Positions 31,409 to 61,031 of a stretch of 64,000 nucleotides of DNA are shown here, piece by piece (positions within the stretch are counted from its first letter, which is position 1; the number at the start of each line of letters is the position of its first letter). The stretch is taken from positions 13,896 through 77,895 of the forward strand of contig JANOAK010000023.1 in the NCBI GenBank assembly GCA_031411095.1. Reading direction: 5' to 3'. The DNA comes from Flavobacteriales bacterium. Lineage in GTDB: Bacteria; Bacteroidota; Bacteroidia; Flavobacteriales_F; PHOS-HE28. Under the pieces are notes generated by a model. The model made no database searches. It was not told the origin of the DNA and worked only from the letters and a program-made list of their open reading frames with translations. The translations under genes and the position numbers were made by a program.

Positions 31409-31873
31409 TCACGTAGAGTCCTGCCGTCGAACACAGAAGAAAATGCCCGGTGGCTCTTGGACGTGTTTAGAAGCTTCGATGTGAAAGACCTGCTTGTCAT
31501 CGACAAACAGTATACCCTTCACACAATCAAGAAGCGTCTTGACCATATTGTCCAGGTCAACACGTTGCACGTATTCCCTGGGGCCATTGATTGAGATCAA
31601 GACATTCAGTCTCTCTTGGTACGGCATATCAGCATCGCGCCCCAGTAATTCGACCTGCTTCCTAAGAGCTTCAACGAAGGGCCGATACCGTTCCTTTCGG
31701 TTCTTCATTTGGCCCGTTGGCAACGGAGTGTCAAGAATGGCCATAAACACCTTCTCCCACCCCACCGTGTAAAAGGTAGCCGGCGATTCTAGTCTATCCT
31801 CCTCGGGAATCTCCTCCGGTGGAATGGAGGAGACCTGTCCCTCGCGGAGAAAGTCGAGCATTCGGGGTTTCAT
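31409..31873 (-). CDS. RusA-like Holliday-junction resolvase (endodeoxyribonuclease)
   Basis: ...VDLDNMVKTLLDCVKGILFVDDKQVFHIEASK matches the RusA catalytic Asp cluster. Typical phage/island gene. Confidence 0.5.
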   Translation of the reverse strand: MKPRMLDFLREGQVSSIPPEEIPEEDRLESPATFYTVGWEKVFMAILDTPLPTGQMKNRKERYRPFVEALRKQVELLGRDADMPYQERLNVLISINGPREYVQRVDLDNMVKTLLDCVKGILFVDDKQVFHIEASKHVQEPPGIFFCVRRQDST

Positions 31874-31922
31874 GGCCGATAAAGATAACTGGACACAATT
31901 GCTCCATTGCGCAGGCGAGCGA

Positions 31923-31958
31923 CCGCTTCACAACGGGGACTACGCAAGAAGAAGGGGC
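31923..31958 (+). repeat. ~35-bp direct repeat copy C
   Basis: ACGGGGACTACGCAAGAAGAAGGGGCGGAAGTAGAG. Intergenic, between the RusA-like and HNH-domain genes. Confidence 0.7.
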
Positions 31959-31983
31959 GGAAGTAGAGCGGGATGGTGGCTGG

Positions 31984-33156
31984 TCAGCCGCGCTTGCCGG
32001 TTGCAGGGTTGAGGCGATGCAGAACCCAAGGAGTTATCACTTCCATTATCGACTTAACCACTTCATCAATCATCGCAGTGGTAATAGTTGTGCCGTCCGG
32101 GTATTTTCCGAGGGATTGCTGAATGGCTCGCCCGATGAGACCTTCCCGATGACTGTCTTCTTGCCTCTCCATAGCAATTGAGAGGACACGATGAAATCTC
32201 CGGCGCACCTCGTCAAACGGTTTGGCATCCTTGCGGATGAAGAGGTCAGTAAGCTGGTCCCGGGTATAACGAAGCGATATTGTTCGGTCTCTCTCAAGGT
32301 TCGCCACGACGTCGTACACGTACGTCTTGTCCAGTTCTCTACCGTCATAGTTGTCGTTCAATCGCACAATGAAATTGCGAGTGTTGAACAGTTCCACGTA
32401 TGCATAAAGTACCCTTTGCGCCGGATCGCCAACTAGCCGCAAGACATGGCTTACTTCTGTCCGGCCGGATTCATAGATGGGTTTCACGGGATAGTGCATC
32501 CACACAACATCTTGATCGTTGCTCCCTTCCACATAAGGCAACAGATGAGCGATGTGTTTCCTCAGACCACCTCGGTAAGTGAAGTAGCCGATCGCGATCT
32601 TGGTAATTGCACGGAAGACCTCCTTACTTCCCACATTAGCTTCAAAGTGGATCCTATCATCCAGATAGTCCTGCGACCGAGTAGCGGACTTGATTGCCGC
32701 CTCAACATCCAACTGAGCATATTTGCGCTTAAACCCGTTTAGGATCCTGCGAAACTCGCTCTCATCTCTTGCTGAGATAGAAATCGTAATCTGGTCGCCA
32801 TCGATTACTTCTTCAACAGTCGGTTTGGCCATTCTAGGGCTTCCATCTCGCTCAAGCGAAACGGCTTCACCGGTTGAGGTCAGCGTCCCTCGTATTGGTT
32901 GTGGCTCTCCTCTATCACGTTTGATGATCAGGAGGTTGGCCAAGTCATTGTTCTGATCGCTCAGCGCATTATCAACCTCAGAGCCAAACCTCGAATTGCA
33001 TGTCCGGCAGAGAATCTTCGCCTTGAGCCATCCTCCACAAGCATTGGGGATGATGTGCTCCTTGCTTGCGTTGGTGCTCGAGAGGATTGTATCGCAACGA
33101 TAGCATCGTTCATTTGGCATTGTTCTATGGTTTGGCCGGTGAAGCAACGAAGGCAT
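31984..33156 (-). CDS. HNH-endonuclease-domain protein with a large uncharacterised C-terminal domain
   Basis: N-terminal CYRCDTILSSTNASKEHIIPNACGG...CRTCNSRFG (C-x2-C...H...C-x2-C HNH signature). Start at 33120 or 33156. Low GC. Confidence 0.6.
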   Translation of the reverse strand: MPSLLHRPNHRTMPNERCYRCDTILSSTNASKEHIIPNACGGWLKAKILCRTCNSRFGSEVDNALSDQNNDLANLLIIKRDRGEPQPIRGTLTSTGEAVSLERDGSPRMAKPTVEEVIDGDQITISISARDESEFRRILNGFKRKYAQLDVEAAIKSATRSQDYLDDRIHFEANVGSKEVFRAITKIAIGYFTYRGGLRKHIAHLLPYVEGSNDQDVVWMHYPVKPIYESGRTEVSHVLRLVGDPAQRVLYAYVELFNTRNFIVRLNDNYDGRELDKTYVYDVVANLERDRTISLRYTRDQLTDLFIRKDAKPFDEVRRRFHRVLSIAMERQEDSHREGLIGRAIQQSLGKYPDGTTITTAMIDEVVKSIMEVITPWVLHRLNPATGKRG

Positions 33157-33306
33157 TGGGATTGAAGTCAGATAGCCGACGTTCTCAGATGTGGCGGAGC
33201 GAAAATGCACGCGCGATAATCAGGACGGTGTAGCGACTGAGCAGGGGCCGGTTGCCTAGGTGGGAGTTCCATTGATGTAAGGGTATCATGCTCTATCTCC
33301 TTCGGC

Positions 33307-39193: not shown

Positions 39194-39287
39194 GGCGAAG
39201 GCGAATGGAACGTGCTCCACGAAGATAGCGGTGCGGCCTGCCCCGACGATGTTCAATGACCGGTCACGCCCTTGCGACGAAGCCCGC

Positions 39288-41231
39288 CTATGCACCTTCG
39301 GAGCTTCGATGGACGAAGTACATCTCCATCTCCCCCTTGCCTTTTGCCTGCACCTTTCCGCGCGCCGTGAACGCCAGGCCCGGCTCTTCCTTTACCAGCG
39401 CATAGGTCGCCTCGCTGATGTTCACCTGTCCCACTTCACCGGAGGATTCCATACGCGCTGCGATGTTCACCGTATCGCCCCAGATGTCGTAGGCGAACTT
39501 CTTCACGCCCACGATGCCCGCCACCACAGGGCCGGTGTGGAGGCCCACGCGCATCTCGAAGGCCGGTTCGCCTTGTGCATCGCGTTCCGCCTTCCGTGCG
39601 ATCATGTAGGCTTGCATTTCCAGTGCTGCTTGAACGACACCTATTGGTGTTGATGACGATGGAACAGGCAATCCGCCTGCACACATGTAGGCATCGCCGA
39701 TGGTCTTGATCTTCTCTATGCCACGCGCGGTGATGATGTGATCGAAGGCTTTGAAGCAGGTGTTCAATTCCTCCACGAGCTCCGTGGGAGAGAGTCGCTC
39801 GGCCACGGAGGTGAAGCCTTTGAAGTCCGTGAAGAGGATGGTGACGCTGGCGAATTGCTTCGCATCAGCGTGCCCCTTCGCTTTCAGTTCATCCGCCACC
39901 TCCTCCGGAAGGATGTTGAGCAACAGTTCATCACTGCGCTTCAATGCCTTCTGGGTGCGACGGCGCTGGCGGTAGCTGATGGAACCGAAGATCACGGACA
40001 CCAGTCCGGCACCTAAAAGGACGTTGCGGCGGGTGCGCTCCTTTTGCAGGAGGTTCGCAGCGGCTTCGTCCTCCAAGCGGCGCAGCGCGTTCGCTGCCTC
40101 CTCCTTGTAGTTGTTCTCGATGCGCTGCAGGTTCGTGGCCGCCGAGGTCAGGTTCATGCTGTCGCGGATCGCGATGTATTCAGCCCGGTGATCATACGCG
40201 CTGCGATAGTCTCCCAGTGCGATGGCGATCGAGTCCATCACCTGGTGATAGCACTGCTGTGAGAATTTGGAGCGGTGGAAGGCGGGATCGGAGGTCATGG
40301 TCCCGGCCACTGCCCTGGCCCGCTCCGGCTTACCGCTGTGCAATTCGTACCAGGCCTGTTCCATCACGCAAAGGGGACAGAGATACCGAGGCTGATCCAT
40401 ACGATCGAGAACGGCGTTCATGCTGTCCAGCAAGGGCCCCGCTCGATCGTGGCGGTCGCGCTGCCGCTCGATACCCGCGAGAAGCGCGTAACCGACCGGA
40501 ACGCTCGGGTCGGATCGCAGGCTCGTGATCAAGCGCATTGCTTCGTGCAAGTGCGGTCCGATGGAGTCGAACCTGCCCAATTGCTGGAGCTCCGCGGCTA
40601 TGTAGATATGGCCCCAGCACATCAGCGCCGTGTCGCCCACCCGCATCCCGTGACTGATCATCCGGGCCGAATAGGTCAACGAACGGTCCCACTGTTTCAC
40701 ATTGTCATACGCCTGCGCCAGTTGTATGTACAGGTCGGGTACCTGGTCGATCAGGACCTGTCGCGCGTCCAACCGGAGCGCCTCTTCGCGGTAGCTGAGC
40801 GCCTTGGCCAGGTCACGCTCGCGCGCCATGGTCATGTTGCTCATGCGGTTCAGCAGGGCGAACATCATCACCGTGTCCTCGCGGGCCTTCGCATCGTCCA
40901 GCATGGAATCAAGTTCCGCTTGATAGCTCTGCGTGAACGGTGGCAGGGACATCGCATAGGCCCGCGCCTCCGTCGCTTCCATCAGCACGGGTAGCCTGTG
41001 GCGTGCGAAAGGGGAGCGCAGCATGTCCGCGGTGATCCGCTCCAGGGCGATCGTGTCCTTCCGTTCTAACGCCGGCTCAAGGCTGTCCTCGAGCACCGCA
41101 AAGGCGGCGGAATCAGCCAGCGTGTAGCCATGGTCCCGTGTGGCAGGGGTCTTCCGATCGGAAGGTGTGCAACCATTGAACGCCGCACATGCGAAGAAGA
41201 GGTGGAGGAGGATCGCGGTGGAGCGGTTCAC
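39288..41231 (-). CDS. Class III adenylate/guanylate cyclase with N-terminal TPR-like sensor region and a TM segment
   Basis: C-terminal CHD domain: FTDFKGFT...IKTIGDAYM...GLHTGPVVAGIVG...YDIWGDTVNIAARMES. Confidence 0.8.
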   Translation of the reverse strand: MNRSTAILLHLFFACAAFNGCTPSDRKTPATRDHGYTLADSAAFAVLEDSLEPALERKDTIALERITADMLRSPFARHRLPVLMEATEARAYAMSLPPFTQSYQAELDSMLDDAKAREDTVMMFALLNRMSNMTMARERDLAKALSYREEALRLDARQVLIDQVPDLYIQLAQAYDNVKQWDRSLTYSARMISHGMRVGDTALMCWGHIYIAAELQQLGRFDSIGPHLHEAMRLITSLRSDPSVPVGYALLAGIERQRDRHDRAGPLLDSMNAVLDRMDQPRYLCPLCVMEQAWYELHSGKPERARAVAGTMTSDPAFHRSKFSQQCYHQVMDSIAIALGDYRSAYDHRAEYIAIRDSMNLTSAATNLQRIENNYKEEAANALRRLEDEAAANLLQKERTRRNVLLGAGLVSVIFGSISYRQRRRTQKALKRSDELLLNILPEEVADELKAKGHADAKQFASVTILFTDFKGFTSVAERLSPTELVEELNTCFKAFDHIITARGIEKIKTIGDAYMCAGGLPVPSSSTPIGVVQAALEMQAYMIARKAERDAQGEPAFEMRVGLHTGPVVAGIVGVKKFAYDIWGDTVNIAARMESSGEVGQVNISEATYALVKEEPGLAFTARGKVQAKGKGEMEMYFVHRSSEGA

Positions 41232-48627: not shown

Positions 48628-50307
48628 CTACGCGAAATGGACCTTCAGCTCGTCGCCGAAATACTGCAACGCGTTCCGCACGCCCAGTGGAAGTCCGCCC
48701 CCCAAGGCGCAGAGCGAACCGATCTCCATGGTCTCGATCAGGTCGTCGAACAGGGCACGATCGATCTTTCGTCCGTGTACGCGCGCACCTTCGATCAATT
48801 CCTTGCCGCGAGTGGAACCGATGCGGCACGGGAAGCACTTGCCACAGCTCTCCAACGCCGTGAACTCGAAGAGATGCTCGAGGTATTTCACCATGGGGAA
48901 GTCGGCCGGGATCGATAGCACACTGGCATGGCCCAGCAGGAAGCCGTTCTTCTGGAAGCTCTCGAAGTCGATCCCCAGGTCATTGATCTTCGTAAGCGGC
49001 ACGATGCCGCCCAAGGGGCCGCCGATGTGTAAGGCTTTCGTCGGTCGGGCGAAGCCCTGTCCCATGTCATCGATGACGGTGCTCAACGGTGTTCCGCATT
49101 CCACTTCATACAGACCCGGACGCTTGAAGCCGCTGTCCAGGCACACGAGCTTGCTACCGTTGCTCTTCTCCGTTCCGAGCTTGGCGAAGGCCGCGCCGCC
49201 GTTTTTGAGCACCCAAGGGACACAGGCCAGCGTCTCCACGTTGTTCACCACCGTGGGGCGGTTGAAGAGGCCTTGTTGGGCGGGGTAGGGCGGACGTGTG
49301 CGCACCTCACCGCGTTTGCCTTCAATGCTGTTGAGCAGTGCGGTCTCCTCACCGCACACATAAGCGCCTGCGGCCTTGATCACCTTGAACCGGAAGTTCA
49401 CACCGCTTCCCTTGATGTTCGTGCCGATCCATCCTTTTGCCTCTATCTCGGACACGGCCTTCTTCACGATCTCCACCGCTTCGGGATATTCCGCACGGAT
49501 GTACAGCACGCCGGTGTCCGCACCCACGCAGAAGCCGGCGATCATCATGCCCAGCAATACCTGGTGCGGACGTTGTTCCAAGAGGTACCGGTCGCTGTAT
49601 GCACCGGGGTCACCTTCGTCCGCATTGCACACGATGTACTTGCGCGGCGTGCCGTTGCCGGTGAGATCCTGCGCATCCCGACAGGCCTGCAGCTTGAAGC
49701 CCATGGGGAATCCAGCACCACCCCGCCCGCGGATGGTCGCGGTCTTGATCTCGTTGAGCGCATCCGAGGGATCGCCTTTCAGCACCTGCTCCCACAGCGC
49801 ATAGAACGCATCGAGCGCGGGCATCGGTGCCGTGAGGATGGGTTGCGCCATGGACGTGCCCACATGATGACCATCCATTCCGTTGCGCTCTTCGCCGCTG
49901 ACGATCCGGTCCAAGCGATCGATCGCCTTGCCCGAATAGTTCACGTCGCCCACGTTGAACGCGCTGTTCTCGTGGCAACGGCCCAGGCAGCACATGTGGC
50001 CGATCTCCCCGGCGTTGAAATGCTTTGCCAGTTCATGATGCACCTTGTCCTGCGTTCCGGCCACCAGGCACGCACTGCCATTGCACACATACGCCTTGAT
50101 GCCCTGGTTCTCCTTCTTCAGGAAGTCGTAGAACGAACTGGTACCGAACGTCACCGCTTCACCGACAAGGAAGTCGTCGGCGATGGTGGTCAGTTCACGA
50201 TCGTCGGGTGTGCCGCTCTTCATCGCGGCCTGCTGCAGGCGTTCCCAAAGCGGGTCGTCGAGCTCCTTGCCATCACGGCCGGAGAGGGAGGAGATGTTCT
50301 TGCTCAT
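48628..50307 (-). CDS. NuoE-NuoF-like fused flavoprotein (NAD(H)-binding FMN subunit; formate-dehydrogenase beta / NADH dehydrogenase 51-kDa-like)
   Basis: N-terminal thioredoxin-like 2Fe-2S region, NADH/FMN motifs (GRGGAGFP, NADEGDPGAYSDR), SLBB and 4Fe-4S Cys cluster. Start at MSKNISS. Confidence 0.8.
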   Translation of the reverse strand: MSKNISSLSGRDGKELDDPLWERLQQAAMKSGTPDDRELTTIADDFLVGEAVTFGTSSFYDFLKKENQGIKAYVCNGSACLVAGTQDKVHHELAKHFNAGEIGHMCCLGRCHENSAFNVGDVNYSGKAIDRLDRIVSGEERNGMDGHHVGTSMAQPILTAPMPALDAFYALWEQVLKGDPSDALNEIKTATIRGRGGAGFPMGFKLQACRDAQDLTGNGTPRKYIVCNADEGDPGAYSDRYLLEQRPHQVLLGMMIAGFCVGADTGVLYIRAEYPEAVEIVKKAVSEIEAKGWIGTNIKGSGVNFRFKVIKAAGAYVCGEETALLNSIEGKRGEVRTRPPYPAQQGLFNRPTVVNNVETLACVPWVLKNGGAAFAKLGTEKSNGSKLVCLDSGFKRPGLYEVECGTPLSTVIDDMGQGFARPTKALHIGGPLGGIVPLTKINDLGIDFESFQKNGFLLGHASVLSIPADFPMVKYLEHLFEFTALESCGKCFPCRIGSTRGKELIEGARVHGRKIDRALFDDLIETMEIGSLCALGGGLPLGVRNALQYFGDELKVHFA

Positions 50308-50426
50308 GGTGGAGCCGAAGCCTCGGCGAAGGCGTGTGCATTCCGCGCCGCGAGAAAGGTGGCGGACGGGGCGGATCCCAAGGTAAGTCGCGCGGTTGAG
50401 GTACATCGTCCCGGATCAATTCCACA

Positions 50427-52121
50427 TTGCATTTCTTTGGCCTCATGCCTGCCTACCGGACCGTACGAACAGCCGACATAGCCGCGTTAAGGAAGCTGTT
50501 CACGAAGGGTGCGGCCGGTGCCGATCGTTCGGACCTGTGGAAGGCCGTGCAGGCAGGACGCATCCGCACCGCCCGCGCGCTCATGGACTACCACGACCTG
50601 CTGTTGTTCATCCAGGCCTTCCCTCCTGACGAAGTGGACCACAAGCGCGCAGGCGAGGAGTTGGAACGGTTGGCAGGGTTCGTCGGCCATCAACGGAAGA
50701 TCCGCGGTGGCCTGCACGAGGCATTGACCGATTCCGGCATCGCCGGTGCGCGCTCCTGCGCAAGCTTCGGCATCGACCTGGCGCGTTGGATGGTGGCCGA
50801 CGGAGGTGGCTCCGTGCGACTCGATTCGCTCATGGGCGAAGAGGATGCGATGCGTGCCGTATTGGTGGCAGCGGCACTCCCGGCGGAGGCGGATGCCATG
50901 GACCATGGCGGGTACAGCGTGCAGGAACGGATCCGCGAAGCATGCGCAGGTGATGATGCAGCGGCCCTGCGCTGGTTGGTGCGTGCGATCGACGACATGG
51001 GCTCAACACCTGCGCTGCGCAATGCCCTGTGGCAGGTGATGAACCCCATGCTGCTGATCAGTGCTCCACCGTCCTTCCTCACGCGTACGTTCTGCCGCGG
51101 CCTTTCAACCCCTGTGCATCCGTTCAGGCCCGGGGATCCGGTCGATCCGCAGCGCATCATCCGCACACCCTTGCCGCCACCGCGCGTGCTGAAGGGCGAC
51201 GAGCGGCTCACACTGGTGAACGCGGTGCGTGGCGCGTTGCTCGGCCATCTGCGCGAGACCGATACCACCACATTGTGCGTACCCGCCGCTGTGGAATGGC
51301 AGGAGCTGGGCGATGGCCTCGGTATGGCGCTGCTTCCCTTGCCCGCGGGAAGAAGAACGGCCTTCGATGATTACGTGGGGTATGTCCTTTTTTCGAATGC
51401 CGTGCCCGTGGCATACGGCGGCGCGTGGATCTTCCCCGGCAAAAGCAAGGTGGGCATCAATGTGTTCCCGGCGTTCCGGGGCGGTCCGTCCATGGGGCTC
51501 TTCGCCCGCATCCTGCAGTGCTACGCGCAGCGCTATGGTGTGGAGTGCTTCGAGGCGGAGAGCTACCAACTGGGCCATGGAAATGCCGATGGGATCCGCT
51601 CGGGCGCGTACTGGTTCTACTATCGTGCGGGCTTCAGGTCAGAGGATCCCCAGCTTGCCGCATTGGCGGAATCGGAGCGCGCGATCCTCGCGCGTGACCG
51701 CGGTCACCGTACGCCGGCCGCCACCTTGCGCGAACTGGTCGCGGGCTCCATGCGCTTGCACCTTTCGCAGGGCACGGCACCCGATCTCGAGCCCGGTGCG
51801 CTGAGCGAAGCCGTGTTGCAACATCTTGGCGGCATTCAACAAGGTGATCGTGGAGCGGCTGCCCGGCGTTGTGCGGAACGGGTGAGGAAGGCACTGGGGG
51901 TATCCGATCATCGCCAGTGGCCCATGGAGGAACAGCGCGCGTTCATCGACCTCGCACCCGCGATGGATCTGATCCCCGACCTGGCGAAGTGGACGGCGCA
52001 ACAGAAGCGCGCGCTGATCGCGTTGATGCGGGCCAAAGGGCAGCTCACGGAGGACCGTTACATCTCGGCTCTTCGCACACACAAACGCTTGATGTTGGCA
52101 TGGGCGAAGGCTGCGGAGTGA
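50427..52121 (+). CDS. Conserved hypothetical protein (564 aa)
   Basis: Long GC3-biased ORF. No family recognised. Confidence 0.5.
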   Translation: MHFFGLMPAYRTVRTADIAALRKLFTKGAAGADRSDLWKAVQAGRIRTARALMDYHDLLLFIQAFPPDEVDHKRAGEELERLAGFVGHQRKIRGGLHEALTDSGIAGARSCASFGIDLARWMVADGGGSVRLDSLMGEEDAMRAVLVAAALPAEADAMDHGGYSVQERIREACAGDDAAALRWLVRAIDDMGSTPALRNALWQVMNPMLLISAPPSFLTRTFCRGLSTPVHPFRPGDPVDPQRIIRTPLPPPRVLKGDERLTLVNAVRGALLGHLRETDTTTLCVPAAVEWQELGDGLGMALLPLPAGRRTAFDDYVGYVLFSNAVPVAYGGAWIFPGKSKVGINVFPAFRGGPSMGLFARILQCYAQRYGVECFEAESYQLGHGNADGIRSGAYWFYYRAGFRSEDPQLAALAESERAILARDRGHRTPAATLRELVAGSMRLHLSQGTAPDLEPGALSEAVLQHLGGIQQGDRGAAARRCAERVRKALGVSDHRQWPMEEQRAFIDLAPAMDLIPDLAKWTAQQKRALIALMRAKGQLTEDRYISALRTHKRLMLAWAKAAE

Positions 52122-52128
52122 GTGGTCG

Positions 52129-52299
52129 TCACTCAGCCGCTTCGTCGTCCTTGCGCTTTCGCGAGTAGCATTTCTTGCTCTCCACCTTCTTCACGCGAAA
52201 GCGGCCATCGAGCGCGCCCTGTGCTTTCTGTGCGGCCCGTTTCGCGGCGCGTTCAATGGCGGCGAGGTCGGCCTTGGTGTTGGGTTTCTTCTTCGCCAT
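52129..52299 (-). CDS. Possible small basic protein (56 aa, MAKKKPNTKADLAAIERAAKRAAQKAQGALDGRFRVKKVESKKCYSRKRKDDEAAE)
   Basis: ATG-to-TGA ORF not in the supplied track (<60 aa). Coordinates +/-1. Confidence 0.3.
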   Translation of the reverse strand: MAKKKPNTKADLAAIERAAKRAAQKAQGALDGRFRVKKVESKKCYSRKRKDDEAAE

Positions 52300-52436
52300 C
52301 ACGGTAGTGAAGATCGGTCGGTGCGAGTAAAAAAACAGGCTCTTTAGGTTTGATGTTCAAGAACTTAACTGTTACCTTTCTCAAGCATTTTTCAGTTAAC
52401 TCTCCAACGCCTGCGCCGGGCTACGGCGCTGACATC

Positions 52437-53426
52437 ATGAAAAAGTTGCTCAAGGTCCTGGCCGTGCTGCTCGGCACTGTGGCATTGGTCGTCGGCGGAG
52501 GTATCCTCTACATCACAAAGATGCTTCCCAACGTAAAGGTCCAGGAGGACCTCAAGGTGGAGTCAACCCCCGCGCGGCTGGAACGCGGGAGGTACCTGGC
52601 GAACAGCGTGTGCGTTTGCATGGATTGCCACAGTCACCGCGATTGGAATGCGTTCAGCGGACCGCTTATGCCCGGGACGTACGGCGTTGGCGGGGAGAAG
52701 TTCGATCGCTCGATGCAGTTCCCCGGTGAGTTCTACGCCAAGAACATCACACCCTTTGCCTTGAAGGACTGGAGCGACGGGGAGATCTACCGCGCCATCA
52801 CCAGCGGCATCAGCAAGGATGGTCATCCGTTCTTTCCGGTGATGCCCTATCCGAACTTCAACAGATTGGCAACGGAGGATGTGTACTCCATCATTGCCTA
52901 CCTGCGCTCCTTGGAACCGGTTGAGACCGCTACATACCCGGCTTCGGTCATGGACTTTCCAGTGAACATCATCATGCATACAGTGCCGGAACCCGCACAT
53001 CCGGTGGAGATGCCCAGACCAACGGACCCGGCCTACGGCGACTACCTGCTGAACGCAGCTTCCTGCGGTGAATGCCACACCAGACAGGAGAAAGGGAAGA
53101 AGGTGGGCGCCCCCTTCGCAGGTGGGTTCGAGTTCAACTTCCCCAACGGCGCCGTGGTGCGCTCCGCGAACATCACACCACACCCCACCGATGGCATCGG
53201 CGCCTGGGATAAGTCCGTCTTCATCATGCGCTTCAAGCAACATGCCGACAGTGGTTACGTAGCCCCCAAGATCGATTGGGCGAACGGTGACATGCAGACC
53301 GTGATGCCATGGACGATGTATTCCACGATGACCGAACAGGACCTCGGGGCCATCTACGATGCGCTGCGACGTCTACCACCGGTGGCAGGAAAGGTGGAGA
53401 AGTTCACACCAGCAGTACCGTACTAG
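52437..53426 (+). CDS. Diheme c-type cytochrome
   Basis: Signal peptide MKKLLKVLAVLLG. Two CxxCH motifs (CVCMDCH, CGECH). Confidence 0.75.
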   Translation: MKKLLKVLAVLLGTVALVVGGGILYITKMLPNVKVQEDLKVESTPARLERGRYLANSVCVCMDCHSHRDWNAFSGPLMPGTYGVGGEKFDRSMQFPGEFYAKNITPFALKDWSDGEIYRAITSGISKDGHPFFPVMPYPNFNRLATEDVYSIIAYLRSLEPVETATYPASVMDFPVNIIMHTVPEPAHPVEMPRPTDPAYGDYLLNAASCGECHTRQEKGKKVGAPFAGGFEFNFPNGAVVRSANITPHPTDGIGAWDKSVFIMRFKQHADSGYVAPKIDWANGDMQTVMPWTMYSTMTEQDLGAIYDALRRLPPVAGKVEKFTPAVPY

Positions 53427-53467
53427 TGGGCCGATGAGGGCATCTGTGGGGGAAGAAGTGTGAGCGG

Positions 53468-54256
53468 TCACTGCTCGTCGCTCATGCGCAATGCCGCTTC
53501 GCGCATGGCATGGGCGCGTTCCTTGCCCAGGTAGCGTTCCACCAAGGCATGCACCAGGTACACCACGGGCGTGGCCAGCACGGCGACGATGAGCTTATAG
53601 GTGTAGGCGGTGAGCACAAGGGCCGTGGCCAGCGGGAAGGACATGTCCTTGAAGATCCAGAAGGCCACGTAGGTCACCACCACGCTGTCGATCAACTGGC
53701 TCACAAGGGTGCTGCCCGTGGCGCGCAACCAGATGCGCTTGTCACCGGTGATGCGCTTGATGCCTCGGAAAATGAACGCGTCGAGCATCTGGCCGATGAC
53801 GAAGGCCGTGAGCGATCCCACGATGATGTTCATGCCCTGCCCGAAGATGCTGCTGAAGGCCGCCTGCATGTCGGGCACACCCTGCGCAGCGCTGCTGGTG
53901 ATCCACCAACCCTGGTCCGGTGGCATGTGGATGGCGAAGTACATCACCACGAAGGCGAAGGTGATGATCCCCGTGGTAAGCAACGTAAGGAAACGCACAC
54001 CGCGCACTCCGTAGTAGTCGTTGATCACATCGGTCATGATGAAGACGATGGGCCACGGCAGCACGCCTACGCTCAACACGAACGACAGATGCTGCTGCCC
54101 CAGCAGCGTGAAGTCGGCTTTTTGAATGCCGAGCAGAGCCTCCAGCTGGAAGAGCTTTACGCCGATCATTTCCGCGATCAACGCATTGGCCACGAAAAAG
54201 GCACCCAGGATGATGTACAACCGGGTGGACTTGTCGCGGAGGATGGAGTGGATCAT
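53468..54256 (-). CDS. Queuosine-precursor transporter (YhhQ / DUF165 family)
   Basis: Polytopic membrane protein with the conserved YhhQ N-terminus (STRLYIILGAFFVANALIAEMIGVKLF). Confidence 0.7.
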   Translation of the reverse strand: MIHSILRDKSTRLYIILGAFFVANALIAEMIGVKLFQLEALLGIQKADFTLLGQQHLSFVLSVGVLPWPIVFIMTDVINDYYGVRGVRFLTLLTTGIITFAFVVMYFAIHMPPDQGWWITSSAAQGVPDMQAAFSSIFGQGMNIIVGSLTAFVIGQMLDAFIFRGIKRITGDKRIWLRATGSTLVSQLIDSVVVTYVAFWIFKDMSFPLATALVLTAYTYKLIVAVLATPVVYLVHALVERYLGKERAHAMREAALRMSDEQ

Positions 54257-54337
54257 CGGCCTCCAAGGTAGAAGAAGCCTCAGCGTTCTCTTTCTTCAGT
54301 GGACCTCCTTCGAATGCGCCTGACCTGTTGATCGGCC

Positions 54338-55177
54338 TCAAATGCTTTGACGTACGTGGTCTCGCAGGCATATGACTCCGCCCGTCGGCCCCATCGCGTT
54401 CATCCCGAAGTCCACCTTCAGCGCCCCGTCGTTGGTCACACGTTTCCGGTAGGTCGCCAATGTGCGCAAGGGTTCCTTTCCGCGTTGGCCGGTGAACTGG
54501 TCGGTGGTGGTGATCACGCAACGCGAACAGGGCTTCACCAAGGAGAAGCGCGTGTCCCCAATGGTGATCTCTTTCCAACCATCCTCTTGGAACGCATGCC
54601 CACCCGCGATCACGATGTTCGGACGGAAACGATCCATGGGGACATGTGCCCATGTGCCCATGTGCGCATGTGCCCATGTGGTGCCGCGCGCGTTCAGGTC
54701 ATCCAACGATGCCTGCGAGATGATCAAGTAGGGAAAGCCATCGCTCAGCGACGTGATGCCCGACGCATATTTCATGTCCACCGGGCGACGCGAGGCCTCG
54801 GGCATGTATACCAACCTGCAAGGAACGCGAAGTCGTTCCGCGAACCAGGCGGAGACCTCCTCCGCCGCGGGTAACACATACACCAGGTCACCCCAGACGT
54901 GTGCCCGGCGTTCTTCACCATCGGCGATGGACCAAGGCAGATCGAAGGTCGATCCATCGCGGATGTCCGTCACGCGGAAACCGTTCGATAGTGGCGAGCA
55001 GTGCAGGCAGGCCATGGTCGGTACTTCGCGTTGCGTGAGGAATTGATCGGGACCGGTCACCAGCATCCAGCGCCGGTCATGTTCGAAACCACGGTCGGTG
55101 AGGCGCGCTGCATCCACGGAAAAGCCGCCGAGCGACTTGATCGGATATACATGCAGGGACGCGACCGAAAGCTCCAT
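54338..55177 (-). CDS. MOSC-domain protein (MOSC_N beta-barrel + MOSC)
   Basis: LHVYPIKSLGG N-terminus. Conserved Cys in KPCSRCVITT. ATGA overlap with the upstream cytochrome gene stop. Confidence 0.8.
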   Translation of the reverse strand: MELSVASLHVYPIKSLGGFSVDAARLTDRGFEHDRRWMLVTGPDQFLTQREVPTMACLHCSPLSNGFRVTDIRDGSTFDLPWSIADGEERRAHVWGDLVYVLPAAEEVSAWFAERLRVPCRLVYMPEASRRPVDMKYASGITSLSDGFPYLIISQASLDDLNARGTTWAHAHMGTWAHVPMDRFRPNIVIAGGHAFQEDGWKEITIGDTRFSLVKPCSRCVITTTDQFTGQRGKEPLRTLATYRKRVTNDGALKVDFGMNAMGPTGGVICLRDHVRQSI

Positions 55178-57147
55178 CAATGCGCACTGTTCACCACGCG
55201 AAGCAAGCGCTCGCCGGCGGCTGAATGCACCACAACGTTGTAGGTGCCGGCCACGTAGGGCAGCTGACACCACCATCCACCCGCGCGACGTCCGTAAGGC
55301 AGTTGGAGTGCACGACCAGCAGCGTCGAATACCTGTATGCCGGTAATGCCGGGGCCGTCGATGTACACGCGTCCATCGGTCGTGGGGTTCGGGAAGAGGC
55401 GAACCACTTGCGCGAGGTGATCGCCGATGCCCACACTGTTGTCCAGAAGGGTGTCCATGGCCACCAGCTCAGGGGTGCCGTCGGAACCATTGAGCATGGT
55501 GCGGAAGGTGTCGATGGCCGCGGTGTGGTGGCTGAACATCTCGGCGTTCCATGCGGGAGGCATGGGTTGGTAATACACGCGGGTGTTCAGCAACAAGGGC
55601 CCCGTGTAGCCATTGGTCGCTACGTGATAGCGCACGATGTCCGTGCCCGAGCCTTCGGTCCCCAGGGCATCGTGGTTGAAATCGATGTCGGCCGGGGACA
55701 CACCGGCGATCTGTGTGGTGTCGTAGCTCGGATGGGTGGTGCTGAAGCCAACAGGCACCAGGCGGTTGTCCTTCAGCGGTATGGCGGCGCGTTCGAGCAC
55801 GGTGGTCACATCGCCGTTCACATCGGCCATGACGAGTTCGTAGATCTGCACTTGGTCCGGCTGTGTGATCAAGTCATGATGCGGCTCGTATCCGGCATCG
55901 TGGCCGACCAGTTCATACGTGCTGTCCCATCGGCCACTTTGGAAGAGCGTATCGCCCAGTTCGGTGGTGGCCACGAGTTGCACGAAGGCGCGTCGGCTCG
56001 GGTAACCGCTGGGGAACTTGTGGCCCGCAAGGTTGGTGAGATGCACATGCACATAGGCGGTGTCGTCGGAACGGTCGGTCACGGACAACGCGACCTCCAC
56101 CGCACCTTGTAACGTGCGGAGCGTCCGGGAGATGGTGCTGTCGAAATGGACATCCGTGGCGGGGATGCCCAGCGCCTCGCGGTTGTCCTTCATCAACCGC
56201 AGCATGTGGGCGTTGGCCCCCACCAGGTGGTGCTGGCCGAAGGGGCTGTGGCCCGGAAGGAAGGCGTACTCGGAAGCAAGTACAACAGCGTCGTCGATGC
56301 GCGGGATGTGACATCCACGGCAGGACGTTTGTTCGTTCGCCGGGTAAACGCTGTTCTTCCATTCATGCCAGGTGGCCTGCTCCACGAATTGGCCGCCGGT
56401 GGAAGTGCCGGAAAGATCGAGGGTCTCCGTGATCAACGTGTGGCAGCCGGCACACACGCGTCCATCGAGGATGTGCGTACCCAGCCCGGGACGGAAGCCC
56501 ACGAAGAACTCCATGATGGCCGCGTTGATCTCGTCGTCCGGGTAAGGCCCATAGACACGTGCCGAATCGAAGTGGAGTTCACCGCTGAAGAAGTTTCCCG
56601 CACTATCGGGATCCTGCATGTGGCAGGCAAGGCAGCTCACCCCTTCTTTTCCCATCACGCTGGTATCCAACATGGCCAAGTTGAACGGAGCATGGCCGAG
56701 CATACGCTCCTCATGCATCCCCATGGGCGCATGGCAGCTCAGGCATTTGTTCTCGATGGCGATCTGGTGGCCGGGGTTCACCAGCACCTCGTGTTCGGCC
56801 TTGGCGCGGAAGAAGGGATCCCGGGCGCTGTTGGCCATCAGGGTGCTTCGCCAGTCGTCGGCCACGTTCACATCCACGCCATCGCTCGTTACCATGGCCA
56901 GGCCAAGGGTGTCGTGGCCGTGGCAACCGGAACATCGTCCGGCCGTGGCGAAGTACGCGCTGTACATCACGAACAGCCCGTCCTCGCTGCTGCGCATCGA
57001 GAGCATGTCCAGGGTGGAGTGGGGCCCGAATCGCGGTGCAGTCACCGCCGTCCAGCCGGTGAATAACACCACCAGCAGGGCCAACAGCAGTCCCACGCGT
57101 ATCCGTCGCCAGTGTGTGATCGGCCTTTGATCCATTTGTCCGCGCAA
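55177..57147 (-). CDS. Secreted multiheme (5x CxxCH) cytochrome c with T9SS C-terminal sorting domain
   Basis: CSGCH, CLSCH, CLACH, CAGCH, CRGCH. N-terminal signal/anchor. C-terminal ...LFPNPTTDGRVYIDG...IQVFDAAGR...YNVVVHSAAGERLLRV tail. Confidence 0.75.
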   Translation of the reverse strand: MRGQMDQRPITHWRRIRVGLLLALLVVLFTGWTAVTAPRFGPHSTLDMLSMRSSEDGLFVMYSAYFATAGRCSGCHGHDTLGLAMVTSDGVDVNVADDWRSTLMANSARDPFFRAKAEHEVLVNPGHQIAIENKCLSCHAPMGMHEERMLGHAPFNLAMLDTSVMGKEGVSCLACHMQDPDSAGNFFSGELHFDSARVYGPYPDDEINAAIMEFFVGFRPGLGTHILDGRVCAGCHTLITETLDLSGTSTGGQFVEQATWHEWKNSVYPANEQTSCRGCHIPRIDDAVVLASEYAFLPGHSPFGQHHLVGANAHMLRLMKDNREALGIPATDVHFDSTISRTLRTLQGAVEVALSVTDRSDDTAYVHVHLTNLAGHKFPSGYPSRRAFVQLVATTELGDTLFQSGRWDSTYELVGHDAGYEPHHDLITQPDQVQIYELVMADVNGDVTTVLERAAIPLKDNRLVPVGFSTTHPSYDTTQIAGVSPADIDFNHDALGTEGSGTDIVRYHVATNGYTGPLLLNTRVYYQPMPPAWNAEMFSHHTAAIDTFRTMLNGSDGTPELVAMDTLLDNSVGIGDHLAQVVRLFPNPTTDGRVYIDGPGITGIQVFDAAGRALQLPYGRRAGGWWCQLPYVAGTYNVVVHSAAGERLLRVVNSAH

Positions 57148-57894
57148 GTTAACCTGTTGCCTCAGGGCCTACGTGTAACGCCGGAATGGGTGGATCGGAT
57201 CGCCCCAAGCAGGAGCGGCCGCCCCGGTCATAGGGGAGGCCGTCCTTGCGGAAGGGAGATATCAATGGATCCTGAACGTGGTCGCGCACCTGTTCCCATG
57301 GACGTCCGCACAGGGGACGCCGTTGCCCCAGGAGAACTCAGCACCCGAAGGAGCATTGGAACATGTCGTAAGCTGCACCGTCACGTCCATCGGTCTGTAC
57401 CAGGATGCGCGCCAACCAGTGTGAGCCCAGCCAGCTGCCTGATGGCGAACAAGGTGCGTTGATAAGCCCGAACGGCGGTCACTTCCTTTCGCCCACGATC
57501 GCGTTGCTATCACATCGTGGAGCTCCGGTCCGGAAGTGCCATGCAGCGCTCGGTGACCACAACGGCGCGTTGGCGGTCGCACCCCTTGGTGCTGCGCTCA
57601 GGCCAATAGACAGAGCAATAGCATACACACCGTGGCCAAGGCCACCAGTCCCTCCGTGAACCCCACCCCCCGTTCCATGATCGTGCGCATTGCTTCGGTA
57701 TTCCGGCATTCAGACGGGCCAATGCCTATCGTGTCACTCATGATCCCGCGAAGGCCGTGCGCCCGCGGACCGTGATGATGCCGAGCATCTGCCGCCATGC
57801 ATCGAAAGGAGCCAGCCATCCTTCACGCACGGATCGTTGATGACCCACCGTTCTTACTCACGCCCCCGCTTTCCCCCCGTCTACCTTCGCCCGC

Positions 57895-59499
57895 ATGTTC
57901 CGCCCGCTACTGCACCTGCTCCTGCTCCTGTCCCTGCTCCTGACCTTGCCCCTGTCCCTCAAGGCCCAATCGGTGCTCCCGTATGTCGACTACTACGACA
58001 GCCTGCGCACGCAGAAGCGCAGTGAAGGCCTCATGATCAACGGACGGGAATGGAATGAATGGAAGTTCTGGGACCGCAGCGGTCATTTGATGGAGAAGGC
58101 CGATTTCAAGAGCGGGGAACGCAACGGGCATGTGGTGATCTATTACGACAACGACACCGTACAGCACGATGGCTGGATCCGATATGGGAAGCAGGACAGC
58201 ATCATGCGCAGCTTCTATCGCAACGGGAAGCTCATGGAGAGCGGACTGTATGAAAAAGGCGTGAAGCAGGGGGAGTGGAACTATTGGTACATCGATGGTC
58301 GGCCCATGTTGAAGGAAGTATGGGAGGATAGCATCGCACTGGCGATCGATGCCTGGGACCCGGACAGCACGCACACCCTGATCAAGGGCGATGGGCGGGT
58401 GCGGACCTATTACGCCAGCGGCGCGCTCAACAGCGAAGCGGACTACAAGGGCGGCGTGGTCAGCGGTGCGTATGTGGAACACTGGCCCGCTGGCAACGTG
58501 AAGGTGCAGGGCAACAACATCGCCGGTGTCCGCACGGGTGAATGGACCTGGTGGTTCAGCAATGGCAAGCCGGAAAAGAAGGCGACCTACGACCGCGGTA
58601 AACTGCACGGTTCCTTTGCCGTGTACTTTGATGATGGCACATTGAACACCGAAGGCTTCTACCTGGCCGGGAAAAAGGACAGCGTGTGGACATGGTACAC
58701 CGCCAAGGGTGAACGCGAAATGCTCGGCCACTTCAAGGCCGATGCGCAGAACGGATTGTGGAAATACTGGTACCCCACCGGGCAGCTCAGCAGCACAGGC
58801 CTGTTCGTGAACGGCCAGCAGGAAGGCGAGTGGGTGTACTACTACGAAGGCGGCGAACTATGGAAGAAAGGGAACTGGACCGCTGGGCGCAAGGAAGGTA
58901 TCTGGACAACGTGGTTCGAGAGCGGGCAGAAGCTGCAGGAAGGCAACTACGTCGCCGGAAAGGAGGACGGCGAATGGAAGAGCTGGTTCGCGAACGGGCA
59001 ACAGAAGGACATCGGCCACTTCAAGCAGGGGCGCATCGACGGGGCCTGGCACGGCTGGTATCCCGATGGCAAGGAAGAGTACATGGGCCTGTGGGCCAAC
59101 GACGCGAAGAACGGGCCGTGGAAGTTCTGGCAGGAGAACGGTCGCCCGCGCGAGGCCGGTACGTACAAGGACAATAGGAAGGAGGGGCATTGGGTCACCT
59201 ACAACACCCATGGCATCGTGATCAGCGAGGGCAGCTATGTGAACAACACCCCCAACGGCCCCTGGGTGTACTTCGATGATGCCGGCGTGAAGATGCGTGA
59301 ACAAGGATTCCTGAACGGCGATCCGCATGGCCACTGCGTGGTGTACGATCAGCGTGGCCGCATTGTGCAGGAGATGGATTACAAGCAGGGGCGGTTACAT
59401 GGCGTAATGACCATGTACGGCATCGATGGGAAGGTGCTGAAGACCATTACGTACGAGGATGGTGCGGTAAGGAAGACACCGCCGCCGGATAGGAAGTAG
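57895..59499 (+). CDS. MORN-repeat (YwqK-like) protein, secreted
   Basis: Signal peptide. More than 15 tandem G.W..W..NG MORN-variant repeats. Confidence 0.75.
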   Translation: MFRPLLHLLLLLSLLLTLPLSLKAQSVLPYVDYYDSLRTQKRSEGLMINGREWNEWKFWDRSGHLMEKADFKSGERNGHVVIYYDNDTVQHDGWIRYGKQDSIMRSFYRNGKLMESGLYEKGVKQGEWNYWYIDGRPMLKEVWEDSIALAIDAWDPDSTHTLIKGDGRVRTYYASGALNSEADYKGGVVSGAYVEHWPAGNVKVQGNNIAGVRTGEWTWWFSNGKPEKKATYDRGKLHGSFAVYFDDGTLNTEGFYLAGKKDSVWTWYTAKGEREMLGHFKADAQNGLWKYWYPTGQLSSTGLFVNGQQEGEWVYYYEGGELWKKGNWTAGRKEGIWTTWFESGQKLQEGNYVAGKEDGEWKSWFANGQQKDIGHFKQGRIDGAWHGWYPDGKEEYMGLWANDAKNGPWKFWQENGRPREAGTYKDNRKEGHWVTYNTHGIVISEGSYVNNTPNGPWVYFDDAGVKMREQGFLNGDPHGHCVVYDQRGRIVQEMDYKQGRLHGVMTMYGIDGKVLKTITYEDGAVRKTPPPDRK

Positions 59500-59619
59500 G
59501 TTGAGCGCGGTCCTCGCATCTGGAACGACCGGTCCGAACGTAACAAAGCCCCCCTTTCGGGAGGCCTTGTTACCTGTCGCTTCTCAGCCTTCTGGCAGCA
59601 GGCTCAGGTTCGCATGCTT

Positions 59620-60036
59620 CTAACGGTAGCCGTTGATATAAGCGTTGGCGATGATCTCGCTTTCCCTTACCAGCCCCTGCACGATCTCGCGGATCACATC
59701 GTTAAGCTGTTGATCGCTGAACCGATGCAGGTCGTTATACACATGCGTTTTTCGCTTGCTGCTCTTAATGAAGGCTATCTTGTCCTTCTTCGTCATGTCC
59801 CTTTCAACGGGAAAGTCGGGAAGGGGTTCCACACTGTCAGAAGATTGTTCCCCAGCCCGCGTCCCACGTGGAGGACGTCCATCAAATGCAACGGCGGATA
59901 TCAGCTTCCGGCCGTTCAGCCTGAAGTGATACCCGCCGTTGGCTTTCACCAAAAACGTCTGAAATGGACCGCCGTTCGTGCTTGCGGTCAAGGTCGATCG
60001 TGGATCGACAGCCCGAGCGCGACTTACGGGTCGCAA
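59620..60036 (-). CDS. Hypothetical protein with YegP/DUF1508-like segment
   Basis: GGYHFRLNGRKLISA resembles the DUF1508 core. Lower GC than surroundings. Start uncertain. Confidence 0.3.
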   Translation of the reverse strand: MRPVSRARAVDPRSTLTASTNGGPFQTFLVKANGGYHFRLNGRKLISAVAFDGRPPRGTRAGEQSSDSVEPLPDFPVERDMTKKDKIAFIKSSKRKTHVYNDLHRFSDQQLNDVIREIVQGLVRESEIIANAYINGYR

Positions 60037-60380
60037 ACTCGAACCTGTTAAGTGGTTGATATTCAGGAGGCGCGGCCTGCCAGGGGCTGGCTGCGAAGGC
60101 TGCTCATCAGGCGCAGGGCGTGCAGGTAACGTTCCACATCACCGGCCACCATGAGACGGGTGGCGGTCTGCTTCAATTTCTGGTAACGCTTCGAGTGGGT
60201 GAACATGGCGTTGATCATTAAGGGTCTGATTAAAGAACATTCAACCCCCGTGCCAAATTGCGTGGGGGCAACGGAGAAGCCCTGTTCACGGCACGTTCGG
60301 ACCTTCTGCCTACCGGGTGCCGCAGTGCCAGCCATGCCGTTCACCCGTTCCAAGGCTGCCTTCCCCTATCTTCGTGGCCG

Positions 60381-61031
60381 ATGCATCGCGGAGCATACCT
60401 TGTTGGTGTGGCCGGTGGCAGTGGATCGGGCAAGACGACCTTGATCCGCGCGCTACGCGAGAAATTGCCGTCGGGTACTGTCTGCCTCGTTTCGCAGGAC
60501 GATTATTACCATCCCATTGAGCAACAGGAACGCGACGCCAACGGGCGCGTGAACTTCGACCTGCCCACGGCCGTGAACCTCGATCTCCTCGCCGACGATC
60601 TGCGGGCACTGGCCAATGGCGAACCCATCTACCGCAAGGAGTACACCTTCAACCAGCCGGGCGTGGAACCCAAGTGGCTGGAGGTGAAGCCCGCCCCCGT
60701 GATCCTGGTCGAAGGACTGTTCGTCATGCACCATGCCCCCGTGCGCGACCAGTTCCAATTGAAGGTGTTCGTGGAGGCCAGTGAAGGCGTGCAGTTGGAC
60801 CGCCGACTGGCACGCGACGCCTCTGAACGCGGCTACGGACCGGAGGATGTGCGCTACCAGTGGGACAATCACGTAATGCCCGCTTATCGCAACTACCTGC
60901 TTCCATACCGTTCGCACTGCGATCTGCACGTCATCAACGAAGAGCGGTTCGACAAGGCCCTGCACGTGTTGCGCGACCACCTGCTCCAGCTCACGGGCGT
61001 CCGCGAGCTCGTGGAGGTCCACGGGATCTGA
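60381..61031 (+). CDS. udk: Uridine kinase
   Basis: P-loop GVAGGSGSGKTT and udk-specific motifs. Start at the internal ATG (ORF opens at 60258). Confidence 0.85.
   Translation: MHRGAYLVGVAGGSGSGKTTLIRALREKLPSGTVCLVSQDDYYHPIEQQERDANGRVNFDLPTAVNLDLLADDLRALANGEPIYRKEYTFNQPGVEPKWLEVKPAPVILVEGLFVMHHAPVRDQFQLKVFVEASEGVQLDRRLARDASERGYGPEDVRYQWDNHVMPAYRNYLLPYRSHCDLHVINEERFDKALHVLRDHLLQLTGVRELVEVHGI

Follow-up and report, generated by a model that had tools for sequence, protein, structure and literature searches.

A PHC-type pentaheme cytochrome with a type IX secretion tail, and its linked MOSC gene, in a Flavobacteriales bacterium

We analyzed a stretch of 64,000 nucleotides from a Flavobacteriales bacterium (assembly GCA_031411095.1, contig JANOAK010000023.1, forward-strand positions 13,896 to 77,895), hereafter the window, with positions counted from its first letter. 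Our subjects are a gene for a c-type cytochrome with five heme motifs and the gene for a MOSC-domain protein that directly follows it. With only a little more confidence than doubt, we propose that the cytochrome is a member of the PHC superfamily that is exported by the type IX protein secretion system (T9SS) and is likely an enzyme on the cell surface or secreted from the cell, and that the MOSC protein is a cytoplasmic relative of mARC and YcbX and not its partner. This account draws on the heme motifs and predicted signal peptide of the cytochrome, on its C-terminal domain, on its fold and conserved residues, and on the gene order around its relatives.

Results

A pentaheme cytochrome gene with a predicted Sec signal peptide

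The first-pass annotation of this DNA described a 656-residue protein with five CxxCH motifs, and we locate exactly five in an open reading frame (ORF) of 656 codons (Table 1). At mature length the protein has 11 cysteines, 10 of which lie within the CxxCH motifs, so that five motifs are far beyond chance. The protein of the public assembly is 100% identical to that of the window and is called from GTG 57096, giving 639 residues, and the residues of the cap below are counted in this numbering. The start is likely to lie further upstream: ATG 57135 (652 residues) is more plausible than the GTG chosen by gene callers because it gives an Arg-rich n-region, MDQRPITHWRRIR, ahead of the hydrophobic core, as in the N-termini of orthologs. 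Read from this codon, the Arg-rich n-region and the hydrophobic core, both recognized by inspection, make up a predicted Sec signal peptide. The G+C content around the cytochrome and MOSC genes equals that of most of the window and therefore gives no hint of recent acquisition.

The C-terminal domain is a homolog of type-A T9SS sorting domains

The cytochrome ends in a 77-residue domain that had been annotated as a type-A T9SS sorting domain. That assignment holds at the level of homology, profiles and structural model, but the window copy itself lies below both curated hidden Markov model (HMM) cut-offs, scoring 16.5 against 23 bits for TIGR04183 and 13.5 against 27 bits for Por_Secre_tail (PF18962). 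The first-pass annotation had named a failure with the latter model as grounds for refutation, and taken literally that failure is what we see. We nevertheless conclude that the tail is a homolog of genuine type-A C-terminal domains (CTDs), because matches among orthologs, database names and annotations, a profile comparison with solved CTDs, an alignment with a second CTD of the same genome and a structural model all agree. At relaxed E-values, TIGR04183 is matched by 19 of 22 orthologs (best E 1.6e-7) and PF18962 by 26 of 28 isolated ortholog tails; precomputed PF18962 matches are recorded for 66 of 120 wider Bacteroidota relatives, and several orthologs bear the NCBI name 'T9SS type A sorting domain-containing protein'. 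When the profile of the 28 tails was compared with the PDB, it matched NucA (8glk_D, E 0.0068), RgpB (5hfs at E 0.02, and also 7pq4 and 5ag8/9) and mirolase; the NucA tail structure, 8GLK, is that of a Flavobacterium johnsoniae translocon complex. With hhalign, the window tail aligns with the above-threshold CTD of another protein encoded in the window (ORF 142-1770) at 86% probability and E 4.8e-6. Finally, an AlphaFold2 (AF2) model, described below, forms seven strands in residues 566-636, where its predicted local distance difference test score (pLDDT) is ~88-96, and so matches the type-A CTD architecture given in PMC11285876.

The tail is kept in 119 of 120 close relatives, 130 of 161 intermediate relatives and 1 of 178 distant relatives, and in the close clade its PNP, DG, LP..G.Y and RVV motifs are intact. 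In place of the tail, 93 of the 178 distant relatives have a lipobox-like signal; where distant relatives carry a source name, they are Chloroflexota/Anaerolineae metagenome-assembled genomes (MAGs). Judged by these predicted signals, anchoring outside the cytoplasm is a theme that runs through the family, for which Bacteroidota have adopted the T9SS tail.

Because it carries a type-A sorting domain, the cytochrome is very probably exported across the outer membrane, probably to the cell surface. The window also encodes a protein with a type-B CTD as well as a further one with a type-A CTD (Table 1), and the close relatives all come from Flavobacteriales MAGs; the host therefore probably uses T9SS. 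Surface multiheme cytochromes had been described in the first-pass annotation as rarely T9SS cargo, and our literature search agrees to the extent that it found no paper joining T9SS or type IX secretion with multiheme cytochromes, an absence that is not proof.

The cytochrome belongs to the PHC superfamily

HMM classification of the cytochrome, which had been suggested as a check, left the curated families below threshold, and profile and model comparisons instead place the protein in the PHC superfamily. A Pfam and NCBIfam scan gave weak matches centered on CxxCH only (Cytochrome_C7, MtrC/MtrF domain, c554, OmcA/MtrC, NrfH and ExtKL), well under their cut-offs with one exception: the generic model PF13435 reached 23.3 bits against a cut-off of 20.8, yet no single stretch passes alone. 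The cytochrome scores 22 bits with the MccSep/ExtKL model NF040886, whose cut-off is 250 bits; with the MtrC/OmcA models it scores 21 against 209.3 bits (TIGR03507) and 22.3 against 30 bits (PF22113), and it has five hemes and no lipobox. NrfA, NrfH, c554 and MtrC were ruled out as the family, their matches being short, centered on CxxCH and mostly sub-threshold. Direct sequence comparison with the PDB found a short match only, covering query residues 356-405, to 5ZE8 and 9WT8. A profile of 121 relatives extended this result. It matched 5ze8, the low-potential pentaheme cytochrome c552 of Thermochromatium tepidum, with an E-value of 7.2e-8, and 9wt8, the multiheme selenoprotein MccSep of Geobacter sulfurreducens, with one of 0.0058, the five heme motifs being collinear.

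A first AF2 model, built from 22 close orthologs, had a pLDDT of 56 in the heme region and was discarded. Its replacement, built from the alignment of 121 diverse sequences, has a pLDDT of 92.1 and a predicted template modeling score (pTM) of 0.82, and predicts an alpha-helical cap that carries all five CxxCH motifs, an enlarged immunoglobulin (Ig)-like stem and a third, separate seven-strand C-terminal sandwich at residues 566-636. In a Foldseek search of the PDB, the best match was again 5ze8 (E 3.4e-17, target TM 0.67), and the second was HBP35, a T9SS cargo protein. The features of PHC membership are thus present, namely a five-CxxCH helical cap followed by an Ig-like stem, and detectable homology that includes the stem loop H-x-x-P-x-G. 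Because the profile matches to 5ZE8 and 9WT8 and the Foldseek match to 5ZE8 come with this cap-plus-stem fold, we assign the cytochrome to the PHC superfamily of c552 and MccSep-ExtKL, not to MtrC/OmcA. The name PHC was proposed for c552, ExtKL and Gsu2801 (PMC11976967).

The family around the cytochrome is large. A word-indexed search returned 2693 proteins, and clustering at 50% identity gave 2441 clusters with E up to 1e-3, 563 of which have E < 1e-30; relatives occur in 423 species-representative genomes. Source names among the matches listed are all generic, being either 'hypothetical protein', some label for a cytochrome c, or the name 'T9SS type A sorting domain-containing protein'. The cytochrome is a member of a large uncharacterized PHC subfamily whose Bacteroidota members carry a T9SS tail.

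Conserved residues outline a candidate active site

We examined conservation across 459 full-length relatives that are 33-100% identical. The ten cysteines and five histidines of the CxxCH motifs are invariant, and no cysteine outside these motifs is conserved. The only universally conserved candidates for distal heme ligands are H289, H359, H406, M87 and M195. In the profile alignment M87 aligns with a His of c552, a difference that suggests His/Met ligation, and with two invariant methionines, M87 and M195, two hemes may be ligated in this way.

In a loop of the stem, G358, H359, P362, P366 and R368 do not vary. The same holds, fully or nearly, for E239, Q240, E245, S249, K442, D443, R445, D470 and D486 elsewhere in the protein. 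The loop aligns with one in MccSep, GHSIPDGUPTPNR, which extends out of the Ig-like stem and holds Sec325; heme 2 of that enzyme has His and Cys239 as its ligands (PMC13510729). The Sec position is Tyr in the window cytochrome and Phe in some relatives. Because the Sec/Cys pair is absent, the chemistry of MccSep would not be conserved in the window cytochrome and must be replaced by another. The degree to which the stem is conserved suggests a site for catalysis or for binding, not a passive wire.

In five other Bacteroidota loci the cytochrome adjoins a further T9SS-tagged protein

Outside the Flavobacteriales clade that contains the window cytochrome, we inspected 12 cytochrome loci, three from distant relatives (L082-L084) and nine from other Bacteroidota (L085-L093). 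In five of these nine (L085, L087, L089, L090 and L091) the cytochrome adjoins one or two FG-GAP/UnbV_ASPIC proteins, each of which combines FG-GAP/VCBS repeats, UnbV_ASPIC, Ig_7 and its own Por_Secre_tail (Table 1). The five loci span at least three different surrounding contexts, and in L090 the FG-GAP/UnbV_ASPIC gene follows the cytochrome gene by ~10 bases on the same strand. This side-by-side pair of T9SS cargo proteins is circumstantial support for an extracellular role of the cytochrome, and the FG-GAP/UnbV_ASPIC protein is a possible extracellular partner. The window has no FG-GAP/ASPIC homolog, only 6 clade loci have one within 10 kb, and a literature search on ASPIC/UnbV with cytochromes found nothing relevant.

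Other genes recur near these more distant cytochromes. A DUF2202 (ferritin-like) gene directly follows a distant cytochrome homolog in L083 (8870-9583), and another lies ~2.6 kb upstream of the cytochrome homolog in L092 (2221-3384); a truncated hemoglobin gene is found near the cytochrome gene in L092 and L093.

A proposed mode of action, and what weighs against it

We propose that the cytochrome would be exported by Sec and receive its hemes in the periplasm, that the folded holoprotein would then be recognized via its CTD and carried across the outer membrane by T9SS, and that it would be retained on the cell surface or released. Outside the cell it would be a redox protein, and we favor an enzyme over a simple wire. 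The putative site is where the invariant stem loop (GH359xxPxxxPxRR) and the conserved residues listed above, S249 apart, would meet a cap heme, as in MccSep. Its chemistry would be unlike that of MccSep, with M87 and M195 suggesting His/Met hemes.

Several points weigh against this proposal. The predicted signal peptide has, by inspection, a poor cleavage site, which is uncertain because Pro comes at +1 after TA, and the tail of the window copy scores below the curated cut-offs. Of its relatives, c552 is a soluble cytochrome (PMC11976967) and MccSep, which has been characterized, is a periplasmic polysulfide reductase (PMC13510729). The proposed active site is drawn from conservation and from a low-scoring alignment with MccSep, and the window shows no path by which electrons could reach a cytochrome on the surface. 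Finally, the overlap between the cytochrome and MOSC genes, described below, persists in a clade whose proteins are 55-86% identical, which hints at selection for co-expression, and our proposal leaves this unexplained.

Alternatively, a T9SS-displayed cytochrome could pass respiratory electrons to minerals, humics or partner cells, paralleling MtrC and OmcA, which Shewanella exports by the type II secretion system (T2SS). The T9SS tail and the five closely spaced heme motifs suit such a role, as do the lipobox-like signal of distant relatives, which makes extracytoplasmic anchoring a family theme, and the PHC heme core, which has been likened to archaeal cytochrome nanowires (PMC11976967). 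We consider this role rather unlikely, since neither a porin-cytochrome nor any other conduit through the outer membrane was seen, either among the neighboring genes scanned (MORN, MOSC, YhhQ, a diheme cytochrome c, a NuoF-like protein and one unknown protein) or in the other annotated loci (L082-L093), and since the MtrC/OmcA models score far under their cut-offs. Moreover, the invariant stem loop and charged residues resemble an active site more than a wire, and MccSep, the sole relative with demonstrated function, is an enzyme.

We regard it as improbable that the protein is a PHC-type cytochrome confined to the periplasm, with a tail that has decayed and lost its function in this lineage. 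Low tail scores, which place the window copy and the close clade under the Pfam and TIGRFAM cut-offs, would fit such decay, and MccSep does reside in the periplasm. A decayed tail, however, would hardly be retained with intact motifs in all but one of 120 clade members, nor be modeled confidently as a seven-strand sandwich, nor align as it does by hhalign with a genuine tail of the same genome.

If the proposal of a surface or secreted oxidoreductase is extended to the family as a whole, T9SS may place a dedicated pentaheme oxidoreductase outside Bacteroidota cells, often beside a T9SS-exported FG-GAP/UnbV_ASPIC beta-propeller protein. The pair would form an unrecognized extracellular redox system, whether for catalysis or for electron transfer, that is widespread in Flavobacteriales, Saprospiraceae and other Bacteroidota MAGs. 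We put this forward tentatively, as a possibility that we doubt more than we believe.

The linked MOSC protein is predicted to be cytoplasmic

The annotated MOSC-domain protein downstream of the cytochrome is borne out by Pfam, in which MOSC_N and MOSC match above their cut-offs (E 8e-22 and 3e-18, 77.7 and 66.4 bits). The protein resembles human mARC1 most (E 6e-24), with the CSRC motif, which provides the molybdenum cofactor (Moco) ligand, in alignment. Position 3 of the MOSC_N model falls at residue 4, so that the beta-barrel domain starts directly, and all aligned orthologs share the N-terminus M-x-L-x-[VL]-A-S-[LI]-H-[VI]-[YH]-P-[IV]-K-S-L-G-G. Neither the MOSC protein nor any aligned ortholog has a Sec or twin-arginine (Tat) signal, and a longer in-frame MOSC ORF, from 55276, falls inside the cytochrome gene. 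As its domain starts at residue 4, a Sec or Tat signal would not fit ahead of it, and the MOSC protein is predicted to be cytoplasmic. Cytochromes of the c type are matured outside the cytoplasm; with the MOSC protein inside, an extracytoplasmic module of the two would not be possible, and we read them as active in separate compartments and not as redox partners.

The first-pass annotation also had the stop codon of the cytochrome gene overlap the start of the MOSC gene. The overlap is real and clade-conserved, but in the window it is a single shared base (cat-TGA-TGg), not the four-base ATGA originally given. We compared 81 clade loci, including the window's own contig; those from the genome collection are uncultured Flavobacteriales/Bacteroidota MAGs. 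A MOSC gene lies downstream of the cytochrome gene in 63 of the 81. A verified ATG overlaps the cytochrome stop in 33 of these 63, by four bases (ATGA) in 21 and by one base in 12, and a gap of 121-928 bases separates the genes in 5. We conclude that in the Flavobacteriales clade the cytochrome and MOSC genes are probably co-transcribed and translationally coupled. The surrounding order is similarly stable, with a MORN-repeat gene upstream in 68 of 81 loci and a yhhQ transporter gene downstream in 55 of 81. As these neighbors are as conserved as the MOSC gene, much of the linkage is therefore inherited gene order. The yhhQ gene is probably in the same transcription unit as the MOSC gene, and nothing obvious links its function to the cytochrome.

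Two further observations concern the MOSC gene itself. An eight-base tandem repeat, CATGTGCC, gives rise to a His-rich insert, TWAHAHMGTWAH; the length of the loop that carries it ranges from 0 to ~10 residues among orthologs. In L003 (~11888-12715), the closest relative in the genome collection, whose cytochrome is 86% identical to that of the window, the MOSC gene is apparently frameshifted after residue 24, as a pseudogene or through an assembly error.

It has also to be asked whether the two proteins serve one purpose from different sides of the membrane, as a multiheme reductase outside and a MOSC reductase inside that are co-regulated against the same compounds, such as hydroxylamine and N-oxygenated or N-hydroxylated molecules. 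The proteins mARC and YcbX reduce N-hydroxylated compounds, the MOSC protein is mARC1-like, and the stop/start overlap has been kept over deep divergence inside the clade. The isolate names of several matching MAGs resemble wastewater-plant labels, and we infer such an origin, with exposure to nitrification intermediates, from those names. This shared role strikes us as improbable nonetheless: direct evidence in its favor is absent, the linkage is missing outside the clade, and the third gene of the unit is unrelated.

The extracytoplasmic redox module of the first-pass annotation, in which the cytochrome donates electrons to the MOSC molybdoenzyme outside the cytoplasm, is not sustained and is very improbable, for although the genes overlap, adjoin each other through most of the clade and encode a MOSC protein that has no ferredoxin domain of its own and needs some electron donor, an exported Moco enzyme would be expected to carry a Tat signal and no MOSC ortholog has a Sec or Tat signal, no MOSC gene lies beside the cytochrome in any of the 12 loci outside the clade, and the next gene in the unit encodes an unrelated transporter.

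Regulatory scans and other features of the window

Positions 52000-60500, scanned with Rfam, gave only a spurious miRNA match on the tandem repeat in the MOSC gene and no riboswitch, for Moco or otherwise. A scan for sigma-70 promoters and terminators gave results at background level, and the sequence upstream of the cytochrome gene lacks the Bacteroidetes -7 motif, TANNTTTG. A ~31-base element (57820-57852) upstream of the MORN-repeat gene is 90-93% identical in L038 and L007, two loci whose cytochromes are only ~70% identical to that of the window; this element probably serves the MORN gene as promoter or leader. Apart from it, the 760 bases that separate the divergent cytochrome and MORN genes are poorly conserved.

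Converging on yhhQ is a gene for a membrane-anchored diheme cytochrome c of 358 residues (52350-53426), and in 33 of the 81 related loci such a gene is no more than ~10 kb from the pentaheme gene. Further away, two genes ~9 kb apart (36218-39295 and 48628-50406) encode, respectively, an FdhA-like molybdopterin oxidoreductase that has Fe-S domains of the NuoG type and a fused NuoE/NuoF-like flavoprotein. Together the two resemble the components of a formate dehydrogenase linked to NAD, in which case the organism would make Moco.

The window also holds a type II restriction-modification pair, consisting of an Eco57I-family methylase (28090-29841) and an XhoI-family endonuclease (29574-30542). 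A stretch of low G+C content (0.50-0.55, compared with ~0.61) adjoins it and contains an HNH_5 endonuclease ORF (31984-33210) and a 924-residue ORF (33307-36081) that has no match in Pfam or PADLOC. The whole region, 28090-36081, looks like an acquired island.

Table 1. Features of the pentaheme cytochrome locus, of the rest of the window and of related loci; positions are those of the window unless a locus is named.
Feature	Positions	Strand	Details
Pentaheme cytochrome, longest ORF	55177..57147	-	656 codons from TTG 57147; stop TGA 55179-55177
Predicted Sec signal peptide	57037..57135	-	MDQRPITHWRRIRVGLLLALLVVLFTGWTAVTA; sequence inspection and ortholog alignment
Alpha-helical five-heme cap	56107..56964	-	Residues ~45-330; AF2, Foldseek; carries all five CxxCH
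Heme motif CSGCH	56920-56934	-	Cytochrome
Heme motif CLSCH	56731-56745	-	Cytochrome
Heme motif CLACH	56620-56634	-	Cytochrome
Heme motif CAGCH	56440-56454	-	Cytochrome
Heme motif CRGCH	56308-56322	-	Cytochrome
Enlarged Ig-like beta-sandwich stem	55432..56106	-	Residues ~331-555; AF2, Foldseek to 5ze8, profile to 5ze8 and 9wt8
Stem loop	55990..56025	-	GHKFPSGYPSRR; aligns with the MccSep loop carrying the catalytic selenocysteine
T9SS type-A C-terminal sorting domain	55180..55410	-	77 residues, seven predicted strands; FPNPTTDG ... LPYVAGTY ... LLRVV
TGATG junction	55175..55179	-	Cytochrome stop (TGA 55179-55177) and MOSC start (ATG 55177-55175) share base 55177
MOSC_N and MOSC protein	54338..55177	-	279 residues; no signal peptide, no ferredoxin domain
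Eight-base tandem repeat	54643..54680		CATGTGCC x 4.8; inside MOSC gene
CSRC Moco-ligand motif, first Cys	54527-54529	-	MOSC protein
YhhQ/Vut_1 queuosine-precursor transporter	53468..54256	-	81 bases downstream of MOSC, same strand
T9SS cargo protein	142-1770		Galactose-binding-like domain, above-threshold type-A tail
T9SS cargo protein	4602-8534		1310 residues; DUF7948/PKD/SBBP, type-B CHU_C tail
FG-GAP/UnbV_ASPIC genes, L085	3182-5620 and 8031-10904		
FG-GAP/UnbV_ASPIC gene, L087	3106-5583		
FG-GAP/UnbV_ASPIC genes, L089	3206-5644 and 8025-10358		
FG-GAP/UnbV_ASPIC gene, L090	7952-10714		
FG-GAP/UnbV_ASPIC gene, L091	3164-5626		

Discussion

Knowledge of surface multiheme cytochromes comes mainly from Proteobacteria and Desulfobacterota, in which they arrive at the surface via T2SS or as parts of porin-cytochrome complexes. 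The PHC fold and the T9SS tag are each already known separately; what is new here is their combination in one protein, along with an enlarged stem and a different set of ligands and active-site residues. If our reading is correct, Bacteroidota export heme-loaded redox proteins via T9SS, these proteins represent a new class of T9SS cargo, and they are candidates for extracellular redox chemistry in an abundant and largely uncultured group. The cytochrome would then also mark a third branch of the c552/MccSep fold, with other heme ligands and an active-site loop that is invariant but different, and its family offers a handle on the role of the PHC fold outside sulfur respirers.

Comparison with known systems

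The closest structural parallel is c552 of T. tepidum (PDB 5ZE8), which has five CxxCH motifs in the same order, a helical cap and then an Ig-like domain, and which shares with the window cytochrome the motifs W[RK]xSM..S..DP and HxxPxG. Sequence identity between the two is ~15%, and, unlike c552, the window cytochrome is longer by ~250 residues and has an enlarged stem and a T9SS tail.

MccSep/ExtKL of G. sulfurreducens (PDB 9WT8) shares the cap-plus-stem architecture with collinear heme motifs, and its stem loop, GH-x-x-P-x-G-x-P, likewise extends toward the cap (PMC13510729). Unlike MccSep, the cytochrome family has Tyr or Phe at the position of Sec325 and no conserved Cys for heme 2, carrying instead an invariant E239-Q240 in that segment; MccSep, for its part, lacks a T9SS tail.

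As T9SS cargo, the cytochrome resembles RgpB and HBP35 of Porphyromonas gingivalis and NucA of F. johnsoniae in its CTD of ~75 residues with seven strands and PNP...G...Y...(K/R)hh motifs. It differs from them in that the passenger is a multiheme cytochrome, and in that the window copy scores below the curated HMM thresholds.

The MOSC protein, like human mARC1 and Escherichia coli YcbX, has MOSC_N and MOSC domains with a Moco-ligand Cys. It is without the membrane anchor of mARC and without the fused 2Fe-2S domain of YcbX, and differs from both by the His-rich insert that arises from the eight-base tandem repeat.

MtrC and OmcA of Shewanella differ from the window cytochrome in having ten hemes, another fold, a lipoprotein anchor, T2SS export and wiring through MtrAB. 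The likeness is one of logic only: in both cases a dedicated secretion system would bring a multiheme cytochrome to the outer membrane's outer face.

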